From Pseudomonadota bacterium (GTDB lineage Bacteria > Planctomycetota > UBA8108 > UBA1146), in contig JAFMMO010000001.1 in assembly GCA_017859655.1 (NCBI GenBank), positions 1 to 49,138 on the forward strand: 49,138 nucleotides of DNA, read 5' to 3'. Made by a program: the position numbers and the translations under genes. The notes beneath the pieces were generated by a model. That model had not been told where the DNA came from, searched no databases, and saw nothing but the letters and a program-made list of their open reading frames with translations. Below, one piece after another: positions 3,819-49,138 of the stretch (the first letter of the stretch is position 1; each line of letters starts with the position of its first letter).

Positions 3819-4008
3819 GAGGGCCTCCTCCCGCTCCGCCGCCGTTCTACCGAATCGGCCCGAGGAGGGCATCCCCGGGGCGGCCGGAATCCCCCCAACC
3901 GACCGGAAAGGGTACTCCATGGCCGGATCACGGCTAGAATCCGAGACTCGCTCCCTGAAGCCCGGGGACGCCCAAAGCGACCCCACGAGACGGAAGAACG
4001 AGGCTCCG

Positions 4009-6650: not shown

Positions 6651-7250
6651 ATGACCACCAGCCATCCGACGATCGACAGCGTCCGGCAGTACATCGAGGA
6701 GCAGAAGTCGAACGGGAGCATCGACACCTCGAGCGACAGCTGGAAGACGCGCCTCCCGCAGTTCCCCACGGTCGACTTCTCCGGTGGGACCTTTCACTGG
6801 GTGATCGAGACCGGCTTCGGCGAGATCCGCGTGAAGCTGATGCCGGAGACCGCGCCGAACCACGTCGCGAACTTCCTCTACCTGACCGAGCTCGGCTTCT
6901 TCGACGACCTCGACTTCCACCGCGTGATCCCGGGGTTCATGGCCCAGGGCGGGTGCCCGCTCGGCACCGGAACCGGGGACCCCGGCTATCGCTTCGCGGG
7001 GGAGTTCGACGGCGGCGTGAAGCATGACCGCGCGGGGCTGCTCTCGATGGCGAACGCCGGTCCGAACACCGACGGCAGCCAGTTCTTCCTGACCTTCACC
7101 CACACGCCCTGGCTCGATGGGAACCACACCATCTTCGGCGAGGTGGTCAGGGGCATGGAGGCGCTCCGTGAGCACGAGAGCCGGGGCACGCGTGATGGCG
7201 CTCCGGTCGAGCCCCTGCCGATGATCCGGGCCCGGATCGAGGTCGAGTAG
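6651..7250 (+). CDS. cyclophilin-type peptidyl-prolyl cis-trans isomerase (no signal peptide)
   Basis: FHRVIPGFMAQGGCP, GLLSMANAGPNTDGSQFFLTF, HTIFGEVV. Tandem paralog of the preceding gene. Confidence 0.9.
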   Translation: MTTSHPTIDSVRQYIEEQKSNGSIDTSSDSWKTRLPQFPTVDFSGGTFHWVIETGFGEIRVKLMPETAPNHVANFLYLTELGFFDDLDFHRVIPGFMAQGGCPLGTGTGDPGYRFAGEFDGGVKHDRAGLLSMANAGPNTDGSQFFLTFTHTPWLDGNHTIFGEVVRGMEALREHESRGTRDGAPVEPLPMIRARIEVE

Positions 7251-20143: not shown

Positions 20144-20446
20144 CTCGCAAGGACGCAAGCCTATCAATCGAAAGGACTTGTGGAGATTCGTCCGCGAGCC
20201 GCCTGCCGCTTCCGAACCCGGGGTCCGCGGGGATACCTTCCCCATGCAACCCAGCCCCCCCCTCCGGGATCGGACCTCACCATGTGTTACTCTCCTGAGA
20301 GCCCGCGTTGCTCCTCCACCGCCCCCGCCCGCGGCTCGTCCGCGCGCTCGGGGAGCCGGAGCGCCCGGATCATTCCCCTGCGACCGTCGCGGGCGGACTC
20401 CGGGGTGTCGTCCCCGTCCCCGACCCGAAGGAGCGCGAGCCCCGCA

Positions 20447-21064
20447 ATGGATCCCCGAACCCCCGACCCCTCCCCGGAGGAGAGCGCGGGGGAGCTCCTC
20501 CCGCTCACCGACCGCGACGACGCCACCCTGGCGCGCGCGGCGGGACAGGGGGACGAGGCTTCCTTCCGCACTCTCATCGAGCGCTACGAGCGCCTCCTGT
20601 TCAAGATCGCCCTGCGCAAGGCGGGAAACCGGGCCGACGCCGAGGACATCGTTCAGGATGTCTGCATGCACGCGTGGCGCTCCCTTGCGAAGATCCGGGA
20701 TCCGCAGGCCTTCCTCGGCTGGCTCATGGCGATCGCCCACAACCGCGCCAACCGCTACTGTGATCGCCGCCGGCGAAAGGTCGTCGTCCTCGACGAGGCG
20801 CGGCGGACCCTCGAGGAGCGCGCCCGCGCCCGCGCCGAGCGCGCGGAGGCGGATGAGGACGGCGGGGAGCTGGTCCGCCGGCTCCCGGATGAGATGCGCC
20901 TCGCCCTCAGCTGGAAGTACCTCGACGGGTGCTCCTACGAGGAGATCGGCGAGCGCCTCGACATGAGCTTTCACCAGGTCGACTACCTGCTCCGCCGAGC
21001 CAAGGCGGCGCTCCGTCGTGAAGTCGAGCGCGTCGAGCGCTCCGGAGAGGAGGGACTCGCATGA
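20447..21064 (+). CDS. ECF-type RNA polymerase sigma factor (sigma-70 family, group 4)
   Basis: Region 2 (FRTLIERYERLLFKIALRKAGNRADAEDIVQDVCMHAWRSL) and region 4 (LRLALSWKYLDGCSYEEIGERLDMSFHQVDYLLRRAKAALR). ATG at 20447 with GAAGGAG upstream. The stop overlaps the next start (ATGA at 21061-21064). Confidence 0.9.
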   Translation: MDPRTPDPSPEESAGELLPLTDRDDATLARAAGQGDEASFRTLIERYERLLFKIALRKAGNRADAEDIVQDVCMHAWRSLAKIRDPQAFLGWLMAIAHNRANRYCDRRRRKVVVLDEARRTLEERARARAERAEADEDGGELVRRLPDEMRLALSWKYLDGCSYEEIGERLDMSFHQVDYLLRRAKAALRREVERVERSGEEGLA

Positions 21065-21855
21065 TGTCCGCTCTCGAATCCTGCCGCTGGGTCCGGACCC
21101 AGCTTCCCCGCTTCCTCGACGGGGAGCTCGCCCCCGACCTCGAGACCCGCGTGTCCGGGCATCTCGACCGCTGCGCCGCCTGTCGGGCCGAGCTCGCCGT
21201 GGAGCGGGATCTCCTCCTCGACACCCTCGAGCTGCTCTCCCCCACCCGGCCGCCGCAGGGGATGGTCGACGCGGTGATGGCGCGGATCGCGGAAGAGGCG
21301 GCCGGCGCCCCCGCCCCGACCCCCGTCATCCCCGTCCTGAGGCCGCGCAGGAGGGCTTTCGGCCCCTCCCTGGCCGCGGCCGCCCTCCTCGCGTTCGTCG
21401 TCTGGGCGATCTCGGGCGACAATGGAGGAGGAGCCCCCTCGGTCGGACCGAGCGGGCCCCTCGCGATGCTCGAGAGCGGCGGTCCCGGCCCCACGGTCGA
21501 CGGCCCCGGCCTCGGCGATCTGGGAACGGCGATCTCCGAGGAGGAGGCCCTCTTCGGCGCGGAGAACCGGAGCGAGTCGACGACGATCGAGCTCGTCCGC
21601 TTCGATGTGAACGCGGACGAGCAGTTCGACCAGCGCGACCTCGATGCCCTCAACCGGCATCTCACCGAGGGGATCGCGATCGCCTGCCCGGCCGCCGCGG
21701 ATGTCGACGAGGATGGCTGGCTGACGCCTCAGGACTCGATCCGGGCCTTCCAGCACTTCTCCACCGGAGAGATCGAGGTCTCCTCGGCGATCAGCCGCAC
21801 CGTCGAGTACGACATCGGGGGTCCCCTCCACTGCTCGTACCAGGCCTGTCCCTGA
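21061..21855 (+). CDS. membrane-spanning anti-sigma factor (zf-HC2 / HxxxCxxC type) with extracytoplasmic dockerin-like module
   Basis: Translationally coupled to the ECF sigma gene. N-terminal HLDRCAACRAEL motif. One TM segment (FGPSLAAAALLAFVVWAI). C-terminal DVNADEQFDQRDLDALNRHL ... DVDEDGWLTPQDSIRAFQHF. Confidence 0.8.
   Translation: MMSALESCRWVRTQLPRFLDGELAPDLETRVSGHLDRCAACRAELAVERDLLLDTLELLSPTRPPQGMVDAVMARIAEEAAGAPAPTPVIPVLRPRRRAFGPSLAAAALLAFVVWAISGDNGGGAPSVGPSGPLAMLESGGPGPTVDGPGLGDLGTAISEEEALFGAENRSESTTIELVRFDVNADEQFDQRDLDALNRHLTEGIAIACPAAADVDEDGWLTPQDSIRAFQHFSTGEIEVSSAISRTVEYDIGGPLHCSYQACP
21601..21780 (+). other. dockerin-like double Ca-loop module in the anti-sigma factor
   Basis: Two D-x-[ND]-x-D-x(5,6)-D-x(3)-[LF]-x(2)-[HF] repeats separated by a Cys-containing linker (IAIAC). 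Confidence 0.5.
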
Positions 21856-21973: not shown

Positions 21974-23500
21974 GTGGGAGTGAGCCCCGTGTCCCGACGA
22001 TCGATCCTTCTCGCCGTCACCGCCCTCGCCGGCGTCGCCCTGCTCGTGGGAGAGTCCTCCCCGGCCGCGGCGGAGAGACCCGCCGTCCGCGTCCCGGGGG
22101 ATGAGTCCGCGCCCCCGAAGGCCGACGATGCGCCGTCCGGAGACGAGGCGAGCGAGAGCGCGGAGGCGCTCGCCCTCCTCTACACGATCCACAACGAGGG
22201 ATACATCGAGCCCTGCGGCTGACCGAAGAAGAAGGTGAAGCTGGGCAGTTTGGCCCGGCGCAAGACGTACCTCGACAGCGTGGCCACCGAGGGGATCGAT
22301 CCGGTCCTCGTCGATGGCGGAGACTGGCTCTTCGAGCTCGGCAACGTCCGGATGAACAAGTTCGCCGAGCGTCAGCTGCGCCAGAAGGCGGAGCTCATCG
22401 TCGACGCCTACAACGAGTTCGGGTACGACGCCGCCGCGATCGGGGAGCACGACCTCGCCTTCGGGATCGAGTTCGTCGAGGCGCTCGCCGCGCGCGCGCG
22501 CTTCCCCTTCCTCTGCGCGAATCTCCTCCGGGACGGCGCCCCCATCTTCCCCGGCTCGACCGTCATCGAGCGGGCCGGGTTCCGCGTCGGCGTCATCGCG
22601 ATCCTCATGGAGCTCCCCGACCGCTTCCTCGAGAAGTACTCCCCGGGGCTCACCGTCGGGAGCCACCGGGAGGCGCTCGCCCGCGAGCTGGAGAAGCTCG
22701 GGGATGAGGTCGACACGGTGGTCCTCCTCGGCCATGTCGAGCAGACCGACATCATGGAGATCGCGGACACGGTGAAGGGGATCGACTTCATCCTCCACCC
22801 CGCGGGGTTCTCCGGGAACGAGCCGACCTGGATCAACGACGGCGAGGAGATCACCGAGCGGAACGGGAAGGTCCTGCTGAAGATCAGCGGTCAGGGCTCC
22901 ACCGTCGGCCGGCTCGACCTCTACCCCTCGGAGCGGGGCGCGCCCTGGCACAACTTCGCCGAGGAGCCGCAGGCGACCGGGAACCTCTACTTCCCGACGC
23001 TGACCCGACTCGCGAGCCACATCGGGAAGCACCCCGGGATCGACGCCCTCGTGAACGAGTTCCTCAAGGGGACCCGCTACCGGGGCTTCACCGAGGAGGA
23101 CCTGACCTTCGTCCCGGCGACCGACTACCTGACCGCCGACACCTGCAGCGTCTGTCACCTTGAGCAGGCGGAGTTCTGGCGCGGCACGGGACACGGCAAG
23201 GCCTACCAGACCCTCGTCGATGCCGAGAGCCAGTTCCGCTACGACTGCATCTCCTGCCACGTGCTCGGCTACGGCGAGACCTTCGTGGATGCCCACGCCG
23301 TGGGTCCGTACAAGGATGTCCAGTGCGAGTCGTGCCACGGGAAGAACCCGCAGCATCCGACCGCCCCGGCGGACCACCCGTGGCCCAAGGTGAACACCGA
23401 GACCTGCTGGTCCTGTCACGACCCGAGGGTCACCCGTGTCCCGTTCGATGTGAGCGCCGGCCTGCCGGCGGTGACCTGTCCGCCCCTGAAGCGGAACTGA
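21974..23500 (+). CDS. exported degenerate 5'-nucleotidase/metallophosphoesterase-like protein fused to a tetraheme cytochrome c; candidate selenoprotein with in-frame TGA (Sec) at 22220-22222
   Basis: ORFs 21974-22222 and 22235-23500 share one frame and are separated only by the TGA. The sole signal peptide (SRRSILLAVTALAGVALLVG) is upstream of the TGA, while the four CxxCH heme sites that need export are downstream (TCSVCH, DCISCH, QCESCH, TCWSCH). Alignment to the downstream paralog: YTIHNEGYIEPCG*PKKKVKLGSLARRKTYL versus YSVNVTGEIDVCGCKRKKVRQGSITRRGSYI, so the TGA falls on a conserved Cys. Confidence 0.7.
22240..22259 (+). promoter_or_regulatory. SECIS-like hairpin downstream of the in-frame TGA
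   Basis: GCUGGGC AGUUUG GCCCGGC: a 7-bp stem (one G-U pair) with a 6-nt apical loop containing GU. The stem starts 17 nt after the UGA and the loop about 24 nt after it, which is within the spacing generally described for bacterial SECIS elements. Confidence 0.5.
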
Positions 23501-23595: not shown

Positions 23596-25113
23596 ATGAA
23601 CCCGACCCGCGACAACGGTCCGACCCGCCCCCCGCTCTGGGTGGCGCTCGCCCTCCTCCTCGGAGGACTGCTGCTGCTGACCCTCGGTGACGAGCCACGC
23701 GCCGAGGCGGCGATGGGACCGCTGGTGATCCCCGCGAGCGTCGATGACGACATTCGCAACGTCTTCGTCGTCTACTCCGTGAACGTGACGGGGGAGATCG
23801 ATGTCTGCGGCTGCAAGCGCAAGAAGGTCCGCCAGGGCTCGATCACGCGCCGCGGCAGCTACATCCGTCAGGCCCGTCACCTGCACCCGTCGCTCGTCGC
23901 CCTCGACGCGGGGAACACCCTGGTCGGCCCGGACGACAAGCGCACCACCGACCTCGAGCTCGCCCAGACGATGGAGAAGGCGAAGGTCCTGATCGAGTCG
24001 TACAACCGTCTCGGCTACGCCGCGATGGGAATCGGGAACTTCGACCTCCTCCTCGGGATGGAGCGCCTCCGCGAGCTCCAGAAGATGGCGAGCTTCCCCC
24101 TGATCTGCGCGAACCTCGTCGACGCCGAGTCGGGAGAGCCGGTCTTCCCCCCCACCCATGAGGTGGAGTCGGGGGGAGTGCGGATCGGCCTGCTCGGACT
24201 CACCCTCGAGGGGATCCCGCAGTACTACCTCGACAAGGCCTCCCCGGATCGCTCCCTGCGCACCCGGGACGTGATCGAGACCGCGCGGCAGTACGTGCCG
24301 GCGCTCGCGGAGCGGAACGATGTGGTCGTGGTCTTCTCGATCAACGATGTCGACCGGAACCGGGAGCTCGCCGAGCAGGTGGAGGGGATCGACTTCCTCG
24401 TCGATCCGCTCATCGAGCTCGGCAACCACAAGCTCTGGGTCGATGACGACAAGCTCATCGAGTCGAAGGCCGACACGAACATCCTGCGCATGGACGCCCA
24501 GGGGGCCCGCGTCGGGACCCTCGACATCTTCGTCCGGCCGAAGCCGAGCCGCCCGATCGTCGATGGGTCCACGGGAGAGGTCCCTCCCGGTCGCAGCGAG
24601 TACTGGTTCGAGAAGATCTCCCTCGAGCCGCACATGCTCGAGGACCCCGAGATCGTCGCCCTCGTCGATGCCTATCGGGCCCAGGCGAGCATCGTCGATG
24701 TCGCCAAGCTGCCGCCGATGCCCCACAAGGACCGTTACCTCACCGCGGACACCTGCAAGGCCTGCCACACCGAGCAGTACGACTTCTGGAAGCGCACGAC
24801 CCACGCCGACGCCTTCGCGAGCCTCGAGGAGACCGGCGATCAGTGGCGCCAGGACTGCATCCCCTGCCATGTCCTCGGCTACGGTCAGGCGTTCCTCGCA
24901 CCGGCGGACGCCGAGCCGTACAAGGATGTCCAGTGCGAGAACTGCCACGGCCTCAATCCCCAGCACCCGCTCGACCCGAAGGGGAACCCGTGGCCGAAGA
25001 TCGAGGAGAAGAGCTGCCTCGTCTGCCACAACAAGGAGCAGACCCGGAGCGACTTCCACTTCTTCAAGGAGAAGCCGAAGATCGCGTGCCCGCCGCTTCA
25101 GCGGACGCCCTGA
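23596..25113 (+). CDS. exported degenerate 5'-nucleotidase/metallophosphoesterase-like protein fused to a tetraheme cytochrome c (Cys-containing paralog)
   Basis: ATG at 23596 with GGAGG 9 nt upstream (alternative ATG at 23581). Signal/TM segment LWVALALLLGGLLLLTLG. The motif GEIDVCGCKRKKV replaces the DxH metal motif. DAGNTLVG and GIGNFD are remnants of phosphoesterase motifs II/III. Four CxxCH sites (TCKACH, DCIPCH, QCENCH, SCLVCH). Confidence 0.85.
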   Translation: MNPTRDNGPTRPPLWVALALLLGGLLLLTLGDEPRAEAAMGPLVIPASVDDDIRNVFVVYSVNVTGEIDVCGCKRKKVRQGSITRRGSYIRQARHLHPSLVALDAGNTLVGPDDKRTTDLELAQTMEKAKVLIESYNRLGYAAMGIGNFDLLLGMERLRELQKMASFPLICANLVDAESGEPVFPPTHEVESGGVRIGLLGLTLEGIPQYYLDKASPDRSLRTRDVIETARQYVPALAERNDVVVVFSINDVDRNRELAEQVEGIDFLVDPLIELGNHKLWVDDDKLIESKADTNILRMDAQGARVGTLDIFVRPKPSRPIVDGSTGEVPPGRSEYWFEKISLEPHMLEDPEIVALVDAYRAQASIVDVAKLPPMPHKDRYLTADTCKACHTEQYDFWKRTTHADAFASLEETGDQWRQDCIPCHVLGYGQAFLAPADAEPYKDVQCENCHGLNPQHPLDPKGNPWPKIEEKSCLVCHNKEQTRSDFHFFKEKPKIACPPLQRTP

Positions 25114-36285: not shown

Positions 36286-38907
36286 TCATCGCCCCCCGGC
36301 CTCCGCGAGTCGCCGCTCCACCTCCGCGGCCCGCCGCGAAACCCGCGCGTCCGGCGCGCGCTCCCGCGGCCAGTCCCGTCGGAAGACGCCCCACTCCTCG
36401 CGGGCGCGCGTCTCCTCCCCCGCCTCGGACAGGGCGAGCACCCGCTCCAGCCTCCCGAAGAGGACCAGCTCCGGCCACGGGTGGAAGCGCAGATCATCGG
36501 CGACGACGCGCAGGCCGGCAAGGGAGTCCGCCGCCGTCCGCGGATCACCGGCGAGGCGGGAGCGGCGCGCCGCCGCGAGGAGGGAGAAGCCATCGGCGAG
36601 GCGCCCCGCCCGGGAGTCGACGGGCCAGGCCTCCCCCTCCGGGAGCACGAGATCCTCGAGGAGGGATCGCTCGATGGCCGCCCGCAGGATCACCGTCTCC
36701 GGCCGTCCCGGCTCCAGCTGCTCGGCACGCTCCAGGGCGCGCAGAGCCGCCTCGGTCGAGCCTCGGAGGACCTCCAGCGCGGCCTCCACCCGGGACGCCC
36801 GCCCCGGATCGGCGCGGTCGACGATCTCTCCGGCCCGGGCGAGCGCGGCCTCGAACTCGCCCCCCAGCGCGAGGGCGAAGGCGGTGGCGACGGCATCTTC
36901 GGTCGACGCGGCGGGACGGCGGGCCGCGCCGGCGGCCGCCGCGAGGCGACCGGTCTGGGCGAGGAAGGGGACGCGCAGGCGGGCCTCCGGCCCGTCGACC
37001 TCCGCCTCGATGATGCGATCGCGGAAGGAGGCGATCGCCTCGTCCCTCGGGCCGAGCGCGAGGCGCCGGGCATGCTCGAGTCGGACCGCCTCGGTGGTGC
37101 GAACCGGGCCTTCGAGGAGGCGCAGGCGATCGAGGGCGCCCCCCATCTCGGGGATGCTCCCCCGCCGCCACGCGAGCTCCACCCGGATCCGGGCGACCCA
37201 GGGCTCGATCGGGCCGGGGTCCTCCGCACTCCTCCCGAGCCGCTCCGTGAGGCGGGCATCGGACTCGCGGGGGTCGAGGATCGCGAGGAGGAGGTCGACC
37301 CGACGAGCCACGGGATGGTCCGCTCCCCAGCGGAGAGCGCGTCCGCGCACGGGGATGGAAAGGACATCGTCGAGGAGGCGAGCAGGGACGCTGTCGGTTC
37401 CGCTCAGGGGGGAGAGGAGGGCGGCGGCCTCGTCAACGCGACCCTCGCAGAGGCGCAGGGCGGCCATCCAGCCGGTCGCCTCCGGGAAGGCCCCGGCGCT
37501 CGCTCGGGCCCGGGAGAGGAGAGCCAACGCCTCACCCCGCGCCTCTCCCGTCGCGCTGCGGACCCCCTCGACGAAGAGGAGGAGCGCCTCCTCCGGTCGC
37601 CCGGCGATCGGCCCGGGGCTCTCTCCGAGGATCGCGGTCGCGACCGACGTCGCGAGGGGGAGGGCGCCCGCCCCGAAGGCGCTCCCGGCTCGACCGTTCG
37701 GTCCTCTCCAGCTCGCGCGCCACTCCCCGGTCCCGGCGGCGCTCCCCCCGATCTCGACCGTGCCGGTGATCGGCGTCCCGTCCCCCGGAGCGAGCAGCGC
37801 GCTCCCCGGGTCCGCCTTGGCGGTGAGGAGACGCAGGAGATCCGCGACCGTCCCGGCGGCGGCGCTCTCCTCTCCGCCGGGGCCGGTCCACGCCCCGATC
37901 GTCGGGGCGCCCGCGGCGATCTCCGCTCCCCCGCCGGGAGACCCGATCCCGAGCCACCCTCCGACCCGCACCCCGACCTCGTCCCTGGCGCTCACGGCGA
38001 TGAGCACGAGGAGACCGAGGAGGAGGGCGCCCGGGAGAGGGAAGCGACGACCCTCCGCGGCGCGCCGGCGCAGGCGGAAGATCCGCTCGAGCTCGAGGAG
38101 GTCGACGTCGCGGCCGACCGGCTCGCGGGAGAGCAGCCGGGCGATTCGATCGGAGAGCTCGCTCGGCAGGTCCGGGCGCAACTCCCGAGCGCGCGGGGCG
38201 GGGTTCCGTTGGAGCGCACGCACCTCGGTCTCGTCCCCCTTCTCCCCTCCGAAGGGGAGCGTACCGGTGGCGAGCTCGAAGAGGAGCACGCCGAGGGCGA
38301 AGCGATCGGTCGCGGGGGTCCGCGGCTCCCCCCGAAGGAGCTCCGGTGCCATGTAGGCCGGAGTCCCCCAGATCTCCCCCGGGGCGATCTCCTCATCCGC
38401 CACGGAGAGTCCGAAGTCGAGGAGCTTCGCCCGCCCCGGCTCCCCCGCGACGACGATGTTGTCCGCCTTGAGGTCCCCGTGGACGATCCCCCCCTCGTGG
38501 GCGTGCGCCACCGCCCCGGTGATGTCGCGCCCGAGGCGCAGCAGATCGAGGAGGGGGAGCTCGCCTTCCCGGAGGCGGGCGCGGAGGGTCGGCCCCTCCA
38601 CCCACTCGAAGGCGATGAACGCGAGGCCGGTGCGGGAGTCGACCCCCGCTTCGTACACCTGGGCGATGCGGGGGTGGGAGAGGCGGGAGACATGGCGCGC
38701 CTCCTCGATCAGCGCGAGGGCTCCCCCGGGCTCGTCGAGGACCTTGATCGCGACGATCCGGTCGAGGGTCGTGTCGGTCGCCCGGCAGACGGTCCCCACC
38801 CCTCCGCGCGCGACCACCGACTCGATCCGATACTGCTCGATCGTGGCGGGCTCGAAGCCCCCCCCGCTCGGGCGCGAGGGGGGAGGGGCCCCCGGATCAT
38901 CGGCCAT
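36286..38907 (-). CDS. Hanks-type Ser/Thr protein kinase with one TM segment and large helical-repeat (TPR-like) C-terminal domain
   Basis: Kinase motifs ARGGVGTV, AIKVL, HGDLKADNIVV, DFGLS and GTPAYMAPE. TM segment GALLLGLLVLIAVSA. The ATG at 38907 overlaps the rimK 3' end by 11 nt. Confidence 0.85.
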   Translation of the reverse strand: MADDPGAPPPSRPSGGGFEPATIEQYRIESVVARGGVGTVCRATDTTLDRIVAIKVLDEPGGALALIEEARHVSRLSHPRIAQVYEAGVDSRTGLAFIAFEWVEGPTLRARLREGELPLLDLLRLGRDITGAVAHAHEGGIVHGDLKADNIVVAGEPGRAKLLDFGLSVADEEIAPGEIWGTPAYMAPELLRGEPRTPATDRFALGVLLFELATGTLPFGGEKGDETEVRALQRNPAPRARELRPDLPSELSDRIARLLSREPVGRDVDLLELERIFRLRRRAAEGRRFPLPGALLLGLLVLIAVSARDEVGVRVGGWLGIGSPGGGAEIAAGAPTIGAWTGPGGEESAAAGTVADLLRLLTAKADPGSALLAPGDGTPITGTVEIGGSAAGTGEWRASWRGPNGRAGSAFGAGALPLATSVATAILGESPGPIAGRPEEALLLFVEGVRSATGEARGEALALLSRARASAGAFPEATGWMAALRLCEGRVDEAAALLSPLSGTDSVPARLLDDVLSIPVRGRALRWGADHPVARRVDLLLAILDPRESDARLTERLGRSAEDPGPIEPWVARIRVELAWRRGSIPEMGGALDRLRLLEGPVRTTEAVRLEHARRLALGPRDEAIASFRDRIIEAEVDGPEARLRVPFLAQTGRLAAAAGAARRPAASTEDAVATAFALALGGEFEAALARAGEIVDRADPGRASRVEAALEVLRGSTEAALRALERAEQLEPGRPETVILRAAIERSLLEDLVLPEGEAWPVDSRAGRLADGFSLLAAARRSRLAGDPRTAADSLAGLRVVADDLRFHPWPELVLFGRLERVLALSEAGEETRAREEWGVFRRDWPRERAPDARVSRRAAEVERRLAEAGGR

Positions 38908-47686: not shown

Positions 47687-49138
47687 CTAGACCGACTCGA
47701 GCTCGTGCGGGAGGTAGTCCATCGCGGAGCGGAAGTAGTGGTTCGGGGGATAGAAGCTCAGGTTCGTCGCCCGGCTCGTGTAGGTGCAGGCGAAGTCCTC
47801 GAGCTGCCGGCCGAAGTAGGTGAGCTCGTTCCCCGCCCGGAACAGCGAGCCCCAGTGCGGGTTGGTCGCGAGGCTCAGACGGGAGCGGAGCCGCTCCCGC
47901 TGCCGGATGAACTGGTTCAGCGTCTTCATTGCCTGCTTCCGCGAGGCAAGGCACTCGTCCTTGAGGCGCGTGAGGAGCTCCGCGTGCTCCTCGTCGAGCG
48001 GGAGCCGGTCGAGGCTCGACTCGATCGACTTCCAGTGCATCACCTCACGCTCGGTGATCGTGCGTCGCTCGTCGGTCTCCTTCAGCTGCTGCACCATCCC
48101 GGGGAGGGCGGACTGCACGGTCAGCTCCTCCTCGAGCTCGGGCACGATGAGCATCGTGCGCCAGTAGGTGTTCCGCTTCGAGGAGATCAGGTCGGCGTAG
48201 ATGTGGTCTCCGACGTAGAGGACGTTCGGTCCCCGGACGCCGAGGCGCTCCTCCAGCTCCAGGATGTTCCCCTCGTGCATCACGTGGGGGGCGATGCCCT
48301 GGGTGGACGGGGGTGCGGGGTTCGAGCGCTTGAAGTACCCCGGCTTGCGGGCGAGCACGATCACCTGATCGAACAGCTCCAGCCAGGAGGTCTCCTCCGG
48401 TCCGCCGAGCCGCCCGAGGGTCGGGTTCATCATGGCGCAGGTGTAGGACCACTCAGAGTTCGTCAGCAGGAAGACCTTCTTCCCGTTGGCGCGCAGCCAG
48501 CGGAGGAGGTGCTCGGTGTGGGGATCCACATGGAGATAGTCGAGGGGGCTCGCGGTGATCACCGACTTGAGCGATCCATCCCGGTGCACCATGTCGGTGT
48601 GCTTGCGGATCACCTTCCAGAGCTTCTCGTAGCCGCCCGCCTCGATCTTCGGCGCGAGCCCGCTGTAGATGCAGGTCTCGGGCATCGCGAAGGCGCTGTC
48701 CATCTGGAGGAAGCGCATGCCCTCGGTGACATGGGGGATCACATCCGCATCGCCGTAGGTCTCGCGCTTCTGGCGCGCGGTGAGCTTCGTCGGACCGTGG
48801 TACGCGTGCAGGACGTGCCCGTAGCGGTCGGTCTTGAGGACATTGCCGAGCTTGATGTCGACGATCAGCCCCTTGCGGGCGAAGGAGAGGTCCGGGAGGT
48901 CCTCGAACCACTCCCTCGGGAAGCTCTCATGCTCGATCAGTCGATCGATGACGAGGCGCATCGCGAGGCCATCGAGCATCTCGGTGTTGTAGACCGCGAG
49001 GGTGTGGTCGAAGTCGAACCCGACCGCCTTGACCTTGTCGAAGCGCAGCGTGCGGTTCGTGAAGATGGCGTGCTGGTTGTCGACGACCGGACTGCGGATC
49101 GAGGTGGAGACGAGGTCGTACCACCACGGGCGCCCCTG
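47687..49138 (-). CDS. HAD-superfamily 5'-nucleotidase of the cN-II (PF05761-like) type, 5' end outside the window
   Basis: The reading frame stays open to the window edge. Reverse translation of 48980-49138 gives ...IFTNRTLRFDKVKAVGFDFDHTLAVYNTEMLDG, with HAD motif I DFDHT. Downstream motifs are LLTNSEW and YVGDHIYADL. Stop TAG at 47687. Confidence 0.8.
   Translation of the reverse strand, partial: QGRPWWYDLVSTSIRSPVVDNQHAIFTNRTLRFDKVKAVGFDFDHTLAVYNTEMLDGLAMRLVIDRLIEHESFPREWFEDLPDLSFARKGLIVDIKLGNVLKTDRYGHVLHAYHGPTKLTARQKRETYGDADVIPHVTEGMRFLQMDSAFAMPETCIYSGLAPKIEAGGYEKLWKVIRKHTDMVHRDGSLKSVITASPLDYLHVDPHTEHLLRWLRANGKKVFLLTNSEWSYTCAMMNPTLGRLGGPEETSWLELFDQVIVLARKPGYFKRSNPAPPSTQGIAPHVMHEGNILELEERLGVRGPNVLYVGDHIYADLISSKRNTYWRTMLIVPELEEELTVQSALPGMVQQLKETDERRTITEREVMHWKSIESSLDRLPLDEEHAELLTRLKDECLASRKQAMKTLNQFIRQRERLRSRLSLATNPHWGSLFRAGNELTYFGRQLEDFACTYTSRATNLSFYPPNHYFRSAMDYLPHELESV

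Follow-up and report, generated by a model that had tools for sequence, protein, structure and literature searches.

Selenoproteins of the type recorded as "COG0737, UshA-like", with a CxU motif, were among the 20 major selenoprotein families of the Global Ocean Sampling data, where 76 members with selenocysteine (Sec) and 92 with Cys were counted (PMC2398784). The same type appears as "COG0737 UshA-like, CxU" in two reviews, the later of which gives NF041198 as its model (PMC9312934, PMC13188914). Our search of the literature on the function of UshA-like PCGU proteins found no paper, the family appearing in lists only, and an earlier description, sought in the main text of PMC1088965 and PMC1976440, was not found there. 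A second point of comparison is MccSep/ExtKL of Geobacter, a pentaheme selenoprotein polysulfide reductase whose activity was demonstrated in 2026 (PMC13510729). Here we describe a gene in a contig of 49,138 nucleotides (JAFMMO010000001.1, assembly GCA_017859655.1; the whole stretch is called the window below), which is deposited as Pseudomonadota bacterium and placed by GTDB in Planctomycetota. We are highly confident that positions 21974-23500 of the window are one gene, coding for an exported PCGU-family selenoprotein in which an in-frame UGA is decoded as Sec. The family has a curated model at NCBI and was on record as a selenoprotein family by 2008 at the latest, and the gene is in that sense a rediscovery. 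The parts of the gene, including a candidate selenocysteine insertion sequence (SECIS), are as follows.

21974..23500, + strand: proposed complete selenoprotein gene, 508 codons including Sec83 (single frame; NF041198 match to both halves; orthologs of the same layout)
21974..22072, + strand: signal-peptide-like N-terminus, MGVSPVSRRSILLAVTALAGVALLVGESSPAAA followed by E after the predicted cleavage site (hydrophobic stretch read from the translation)
22145..22960, + strand: UshA/5'-nucleotidase-like N-terminal domain, residues ~58-329 (NF041198 positions 16-278; Foldseek search with the paralog; family profile)
22211..22222, + strand: codons CCC TGC GGC TGA of the P-C-G-U motif, the putative Sec codon being the TGA at 22220-22222 (alignment to the C-G-C of the paralog; column in homologs)
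22240..22259, + strand: SECIS-like hairpin, 7-bp stem 22240-22246/22253-22259, loop AGUUUG 22247-22252 (minimum free energy fold; ortholog comparison)
23144..23419, + strand: tetraheme c554-like domain, CxxCH at 23144-23158, 23246-23260, 23324-23338 and 23405-23419 (Pfam PF13435; NF041198 positions 401-510; 1bvb)
23498..23500, + strand: terminator of the gene, likewise TGA (frame analysis; orthologous proteins end at the same place)

Two open reading frames (ORFs), 21974-22222 (82 aa) and 22235-23500 (421 aa), lie on the + strand in a common frame, and together they form a frame of 508 codons whose sole interruption is the TGA at 22220-22222. The upstream part has a hydrophobic, signal-peptide-like start and ends in ...LLYTIHNEGYIEPCG, and the part 3' of the TGA runs from PKKKVKLGSLARR to four CxxCH motifs for heme attachment at its end. 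When the gene is aligned with the paralog that follows it (35% identity over 450 residues, E = 1e-96), EPCG[TGA]PKKKVKLGSLARR stands opposite DVCGCKRKKVRQGSITRR, with the TGA on the second Cys of a C-G-C. The sequence E-P-C-G-[TGA]-P at 22208-22225 carries the P-C-G-U/C motif of NF041198, which was found across homologs. TGA is also the stop codon of all seven surrounding ORFs checked, this gene included, so any recoding must be local. A scan of the window for stop codons with a strong coding signal on both sides returned only 22220 on the + strand; the candidates on the minus strand, a TGA at 36288 and a TAG at 47689, are ordinary gene junctions and not recoded genes. The original prediction, made from the letters of the window without database searches, had taken the two ORFs for one gene split only by this TGA, had placed the TGA on the second Cys of the paralog's motif, and had argued from the neighbouring genes that TGA is not reassigned throughout the genome; its coordinates are correct, and the alignment and the seven terminators bear out the rest.

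The start codon is uncertain, as GTG codons at 21974, 21980 and 21989 are all in frame. GTG 21989 lies 8 nt 3' of a Shine-Dalgarno-like stretch, GGUGGGAG, and a product begun there would read MSRRSILL...; the start given by the ORF tool, 21974, may be too early. Residues R8-R9 (window 21995-22000) give the signal peptide an S-R-R-S-I-L-L sequence that loosely resembles a twin-arginine translocation motif, which would be odd for a c-type cytochrome. The orthologs have equivalent hydrophobic N-termini 5' of the TGA and lack the RR, so the pair in this gene is probably there by chance.

The column of the TGA was followed through homologs collected by a scan of one genome per species, in which 481 relatives, spread over many phyla, were confirmed and the best 80 loci were kept. 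A motif scan over these 80 species-level loci and loci fetched earlier gave 63 raw occurrences of TGA, 52 of TGC/TGT and none of TAA/TAG at the Sec column; after removal of off-family and duplicate sequences, 56 distinct TGA homologs stood against 32 with TGC/TGT, and TAA and TAG were absent here too. Members with TGA are spread over at least eight phyla; they come from Planctomycetota, Latescibacterota, Desulfobacterota, Acidobacteriota, Eisenbacteria, Myxococcota, Blastocatellia and other, unclassified bins. Orthologs at 38-64% identity keep the in-frame TGA at the same column with both flanks conserved. The DNA of three ortholog lineages shows the layout directly, with a short upstream signal-peptide ORF ending in ..HN.GY[IV]EPCG, then TGA, then in-frame PK[KR].IKLGSL... 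In Planctomycetota, 12 distinct orthologs of the Sec clade from independent assemblies all have TGA and all genes of the paralog clade have Cys, the split between Sec and Cys being the split between the paralogs. The locus thus shows the general mark of a selenoprotein, an in-frame UGA that has Cys opposite it in homologs and conserved sequence to either side, and judged by these sequences the pattern is far beyond chance. The proposal of selenocysteine at this codon is borne out by these counts, and the tabulation of orthologs that it called for turned up neither truncation nor frameshift at the column.

A 3.4-kb contig assigned to the bin "Thermoplasmata archaeon" (L026, QMSR01000145.1) carries one TGA-type member that is near-identical to sequences of Desulfobacterota; this is probably a mistake in binning and not a copy in an archaeon.

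In public records the TGA is treated as a stop. A search of a large protein collection with the readthrough protein gave a top 24 of matches, at 99% to 36% identity, that are all 378-452 aa long, with a query coverage of ~74-83% and a start a few residues past the position of the TGA; this pattern we take to be the footprint of gene callers halting at a conserved in-frame stop. The nearest is P0001, a protein from an independent metagenome-assembled genome at NCBI, 99% identical to 22235-23500 and 421 aa long. Such records, together with the normal use of TGA as a stop in this genome, would fit a true terminator at 22220-22222, the locus being either a pseudogene or two genes, namely a secreted stub of 82 aa and a cytoplasmic heme protein of 421 aa begun at GTG 22235. 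A nonsense mutation, however, would not be expected to persist in 56 distinct sequences of many phyla at a single column and as TGA every time, with conserved flanks. The 421-aa ORF alone would have no export signal although heme attachment is periplasmic, and its fold would be missing the first strand; this strand is encoded 5' of the TGA, with the CGU loop at the TGA itself, which rules out that the two ORFs stand for independent proteins. The annotated starts of orthologs also differ from one another (MKLGS.., MGSL.., MTYL.., MARRATL..), as is expected of gene-caller artefacts. We therefore give a true stop very little credence. The export argument of the original prediction, by which readthrough yields a single exported C-G-U tetraheme protein, agrees both with the layout of the orthologs and with a fold that spans the TGA.

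A sequencing or assembly error is the least credible of the alternatives, and we consider its probability negligible. A single base would turn TGA into TGC or TGT, and the window comes from a metagenomic assembly; but P0001 is cut at the same point in an independent assembly, and the 12 planctomycete orthologs agree on TGA without exception.

The coding region just 3' of the UGA contains a hairpin of the sequence GCUGGGC / AGUUUG / GCCCGGC, which starts 17 nt past the UGA, as had been claimed, and is contained at 22240-22259 in the minimum free energy fold of a 56-nt stretch that begins at the UGA; the best hairpin of the window gene has an energy of -12.9 kcal/mol. Counted from the U of the UGA, the loop G (G22248) stands at 29 nt and the loop U (U22249) at 30 nt, which agrees with criteria of the bSECISearch type, where a SECIS-type hairpin is to open its apical loop with a G. 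For the comparison across the family, the most stable simple hairpin with a loop start 18-35 nt from the U of the UGA was taken for each member, and the Cys forms numbered 31 because a slightly stricter filter dropped one of the 32. A G was present in the first two loop positions of 56/56 TGA forms and 11/31 Cys forms, at least 6 contiguous base pairs in 42/56 and 4/31, respectively, and the mean hairpin energy was -8.3 kcal/mol in the TGA forms and -3.1 in the Cys forms. Carriers of the TGA thus have, throughout the family, a hairpin whose loop opens with a G, 22-32 nt past the TGA, and which is mostly absent from carriers of Cys.

When the 12 planctomycete orthologs are compared, a stem of 7 bp enclosing a GU[UC] loop is paired in 89% of cells, as against 31-52% in slid controls, and one position of this stem shows a compensatory change, being G-C in 6 sequences and C-G in 5. 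The expectation that the hairpin would be conserved in TGA-containing orthologs holds in this form, with its one compensatory change, but the exact register first proposed does not carry over: only 64% of cells pair in it, with no covariation, and a register shifted by 1-2 positions fits most orthologs. The genes of the window, L006 and L008 do fit the first register perfectly. G22248 and U22249 are unpaired in both registers.

Many members outside Planctomycetota have a loop GGUCU with the G and U at +23/+24 from the UGA, which we take to be the geometry of the SECIS of E. coli fdhF. The window hairpin resembles that type in being a hairpin of the coding region just 3' of the UGA that exposes a G and a U at the start of the apical loop; it differs in its loop, AGUUUG, in the place of the G and U (+29/+30 here, +23/+24 there), and in having no evident bulged U, and its binding by SelB is putative.

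Several points weigh against decoding of the UGA as Sec. None of selA, selB, selD or tRNA-Sec was seen in the 49-kb window, which is all of the genome available, and no tRNA of any kind lies within it; likewise, no Sec machinery or tRNA-Sec was found in 60 homologous loci. (A 92-nt "tRNA-Pro" called by ARAGORN in locus L035 was examined as a tRNA-Sec and proved a false positive.) The fold energy of the single sequence is unexceptional for the 71% G+C of the window (z = -1.12), so that the fold taken by itself is not evidence and the support for the hairpin is comparative. In that comparison the difference in energy between TGA and Cys forms has a Mann-Whitney p of 2.5e-8 with shared ancestry ignored, the covariation in the planctomycete clade is confined to one pair, and the window gene, together with those of L006 and L008, forms its 7/7 pairs in a slightly shifted register that differs from that of most orthologs. 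Rfam gave no SECIS or other relevant match, either over the whole window at gathering thresholds or over 22190-22300 at E up to 10. The counts at the TGA column come from a motif scan that required C-G-[C or stop], so that homologs with other residues at the column were not countable, and at least one relative (L083, Latescibacteria UBA2968, ~6989-7100) reads ..ILEAGKPGSLSRR.. where the C-G-C/U motif would align and lacks that motif, so the motif is not universal in the wider family. The score on NF041198 falls 4.3 bits under the equivalog cutoff.

Some of these points would also suit readthrough of the UGA as Trp, Cys, Arg or Gly, through near-cognate or suppressor decoding or through a signal other than SelB and a SECIS: the identity of the inserted residue cannot be read from sequence alone, the machinery is not seen in the available 49 kb, and the energy of the single hairpin is unremarkable. 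On the other side, a recoded column at which the homologs have nothing but Cys is the classical signature of Sec, all TGA forms have a hairpin with a loop G at SECIS-like spacing, NCBI curators model the family as a selenoprotein, and TGA terminates all the neighbouring genes checked. We consider such readthrough unlikely, though less so than a true stop. Complete gene sets for Sec insertion have been reported for some Planctomycetes (PMC4807772), so the trait is plausible in the phylum.

With U read as C, the best NCBIfam match of the Sec protein was NF041198, "UshA_like_PCGU" (270.7 bits, E = 2e-80; equivalog cutoff 275). Each half of the gene matches the model by itself, the N-terminal half at positions 16-265 with 165 bits and the C-terminal half at positions 401-510 with 104.8 bits, and the protein has both parts of the model's architecture, a UshA-like domain and a CxxCH region. 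The tandem paralog passes the cutoff with 278.6 bits. Among reconstructed Sec homologs, those of Latescibacterota, Desulfobacterota and Acidobacteriota scored 359-375 bits and that of Eisenbacteria 280.7, while those of Blastocatellia (273.1) and Myxococcales (257.8) fell just below the cutoff, as did two planctomycete Sec orthologs (258.6 and 266.2). By these scores the window gene is a divergent homolog of the NF041198 family, not a strict equivalog. It shares with the family the UshA-like N-domain, the CxxCH-rich C-terminus, the PCGU/C motif after the first strand, the alternation of Sec and Cys, and the length (508 aa against a model of 519 positions). The planctomycete Sec proteins, the window protein among them, are set apart by their scores (258-271 bits, against 359-375 for the members in Latescibacterota, Desulfobacterota and Acidobacteriota), and in the window gene two extra residues stand between U and the GS/GG-L motif and the SECIS-like loop lies 6 nt further downstream. 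Two statements of the original prediction have to be corrected at this point. It did not recognise the protein as belonging to a listed selenoprotein family, which it does (NF041198; PMC2398784, PMC9312934, PMC13188914), and it singled out the "cytochrome fusion", which is the standard architecture of the family, the NF041198 model itself spanning the CxxCH region.

Other memberships were tried and rejected. The scores were 33.6 bits for UshA (cutoff 600), 41.1 for SoxB (TIGR04486; cutoff 550) and 29.1 for the UshA-like (seleno)protein family 2 (NF049981; cutoff 140), the motif here being CxU and not CxxU; for MccSep/ExtKL (NF040886) the Sec protein had no match and the paralog scored 11.2 bits against a cutoff of 250.

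A Pfam scan detected cytochrome families only, namely the C-terminal region of cytochrome c554 type (PF13435, E = 6e-11), with no match to PF02872 or PF00149. The profile of the family searched against PDB sequences reached 5'-nucleotidase chains with E = 1e-27 and cytochrome c554 (1bvb) with E = 1e-17. For structure we used an AlphaFold2 model of the Cys paralog, standing in for the Sec protein, with a predicted local distance difference test score (pLDDT) of 87 and a predicted template modelling score of 0.80 overall, and a pLDDT of 56 in the CGC loop. Its N-terminal ~330 residues matched 5'-nucleotidases, CD73 and SoxB in Foldseek (3ivd, 1ush, 2wdc; E down to 6e-23). In the Sec protein the four CxxCH sites are C391-H395, C425-H429, C451-H455 and C478-H482, and all Cys and His of these motifs are invariant in our alignments (A1-A3).

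The hydrolytic residues of the fold have fared differently. In the alignment of the profile to PDB sequences, HTNDTH stands opposite ysvnnk, GNHEF opposite gelDL and GGHSH opposite dplie. The DxH His, the GNHE Asn-His and the motif-V His fall on variable columns, and no column that is invariant or nearly so in the family alignments contains them; the set of DxH, GD, GNH[ED], H and GH motifs that makes the dimetal and catalytic site of 5'-nucleotidases is lacking, as is the C-terminal substrate-binding domain PF02872. These alignments show that the canonical phosphoesterase residues are lost, and their loss suggests a redox role. The C-G-U motif lies in the loop behind the first strand and the former DxH motif, a place that, by sequence alignment, would be beside the old metal site.

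The comparison with UshA, CD73 and SoxB is therefore one of fold. The N-terminal ~330 residues share with them ..LEP.., GG[LV]ARR, a D-G-G-D region and FP.L.AN; the DxH, GNHE and motif-V residues that those hydrolases use are unconserved here, the nucleotide-binding domain of UshA (PF02872) is replaced by the tetraheme domain, and UshA and SoxB have no C-G-U/C motif. The UshA-like family 2 (NF049981) also combines a UshA-like fold with Sec near the N-terminus, but its motif is CxxU, its model has 262 positions and it has no heme domain. MccSep/ExtKL is likewise an exported c-type cytochrome with several hemes and a single Sec, which lies in a G-U-P loop; it too belongs to a Sec/Cys family and has been split at the UGA in public annotation. 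It has five hemes where this protein has four CxxCH motifs, shows no homology beyond the heme motifs and lacks a C-x-U motif; its Sec lies in a C-terminal immunoglobulin-like domain beside a His/Cys-ligated heme, and the Sec proposed here is residue 83, in the N-terminal UshA-like domain. As the only multiheme selenoprotein with demonstrated activity, MccSep/ExtKL nevertheless offers the best functional analogy.

On the standard bacterial mechanism, the UGA at 22220-22222 would be decoded as Sec with the hairpin at 22240-22259 recruiting SelB with guanosine triphosphate and Sec-tRNA(Sec), and TGA would terminate translation elsewhere in the genome, the gene's own end included. By sequence and fold, the readthrough product consists of a signal peptide, a UshA-like domain with C81-G82-U83 in the loop after the first strand, and a c554-like four-heme domain, and would presumably be exported and receive its hemes in the periplasm. 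There the C-x-U pair would serve as the reactive centre, perhaps cycling through a selenenylsulfide or holding a substrate or metal, with electrons delivered to it or taken from it by the four hemes. The protein is most likely a periplasmic redox enzyme. A sulfur or selenium compound as its substrate is a guess, made because of the kinship to SoxB and the analogy to MccSep.

The genes around the Sec gene that enter the comparison with other loci are two.

23596..25113, + strand: tandem Cys-type paralog, 505 aa, with C71-G72-C73, the C73 codon being TGC 23812-23814 (35% identity; NF041198 278.6 bits)
20180..21855, + strand: ECF-type (extracytoplasmic function) sigma factor ORF 20180-21064 (start uncertain) and anti-sigma ORF 21061-21855 (identified by synteny)

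The tandem of a Sec gene and a Cys gene is conserved in planctomycete loci (L001, L004, L006, L008-L010, L012, L013, L015, L017 and L018), and in two of them (L001 and L004) genes with Sigma70_r2/r4 and zf-HC2 lie directly upstream of the Sec gene. The order in the closer planctomycete relatives is ECF sigma factor, zf-HC2 anti-sigma factor, Sec-type gene and Cys-type paralog. Compared with the rest of the NF041198 family, the planctomycete Sec gene always has its Cys paralog in tandem and the ECF sigma/anti-sigma pair upstream. This conserved order suggests a regulated two-protein unit, possibly a heterodimer, in which the Cys paralog downstream would be a conserved partner or isoenzyme.

Family genes were also seen side by side beyond Planctomycetota: L035 (9681 on the + strand and 11633 on the minus strand) and L059 (10157 and 11579, + strand) have two TGA forms each, and L070 has a Cys form at 2831 followed by a Sec form at 3986, so paired copies are not limited to that phylum.

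Across phyla the neighbours among the homologous loci include no universal partner gene, linkage being clade-specific only. Seven loci from Desulfobacterota and unclassified bins (L023-L026, L038, L040 and L043) have a candidate electron donor encoded ~2-3 kb away on the opposite strand. This is a large multiheme cytochrome of NapC/NirT type, judged by eye from its sequence, which is ~738 aa long and has numerous CxxCH motifs as well as an N-terminal membrane helix. Genes for CCG-domain iron-sulfur oxidoreductases occur near the family gene in scattered loci.

What this analysis describes is neither a new recoding mechanism nor a new selenoprotein family. Its additions are a mis-annotated planctomycete clade, a conserved tandem of Sec and Cys genes, and evidence that the fold is no longer that of a phosphoesterase. 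Every planctomycete ortholog recovered was cut at the TGA by public gene callers, and the named GenBank entries are of 415-421 aa and called "multiheme c-type cytochrome", others being "hypothetical protein". The scores below the NF041198 cutoff may explain these truncated entries, as the selenoprotein rule may never fire for the planctomycete Sec clade. A lower cutoff or a clade-specific model would mend the records, and the use of selenium by Planctomycetota of the sea and of sediments could then be counted more accurately.

As a tentative proposal, less probable than its contrary, the PCGU proteins may be a class of periplasmic redox enzymes that have kept the phosphoesterase fold without its dimetal chemistry and gained a Cys-x-Sec pair wired to four hemes, which in planctomycetes would be an obligate Sec/Cys pair under an ECF sigma factor, acting on an inorganic sulfur or selenium substrate. 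A hydrolase fold without its catalytic residues, with a C-x-U motif and four hemes in their stead, is a good target for biochemistry, the more so after the work on the MccSep polysulfide reductase. If true, the role proposed for the PCGU proteins would mean that sulfur or selenium cycling has a second heme-linked selenoenzyme, not related to the first.

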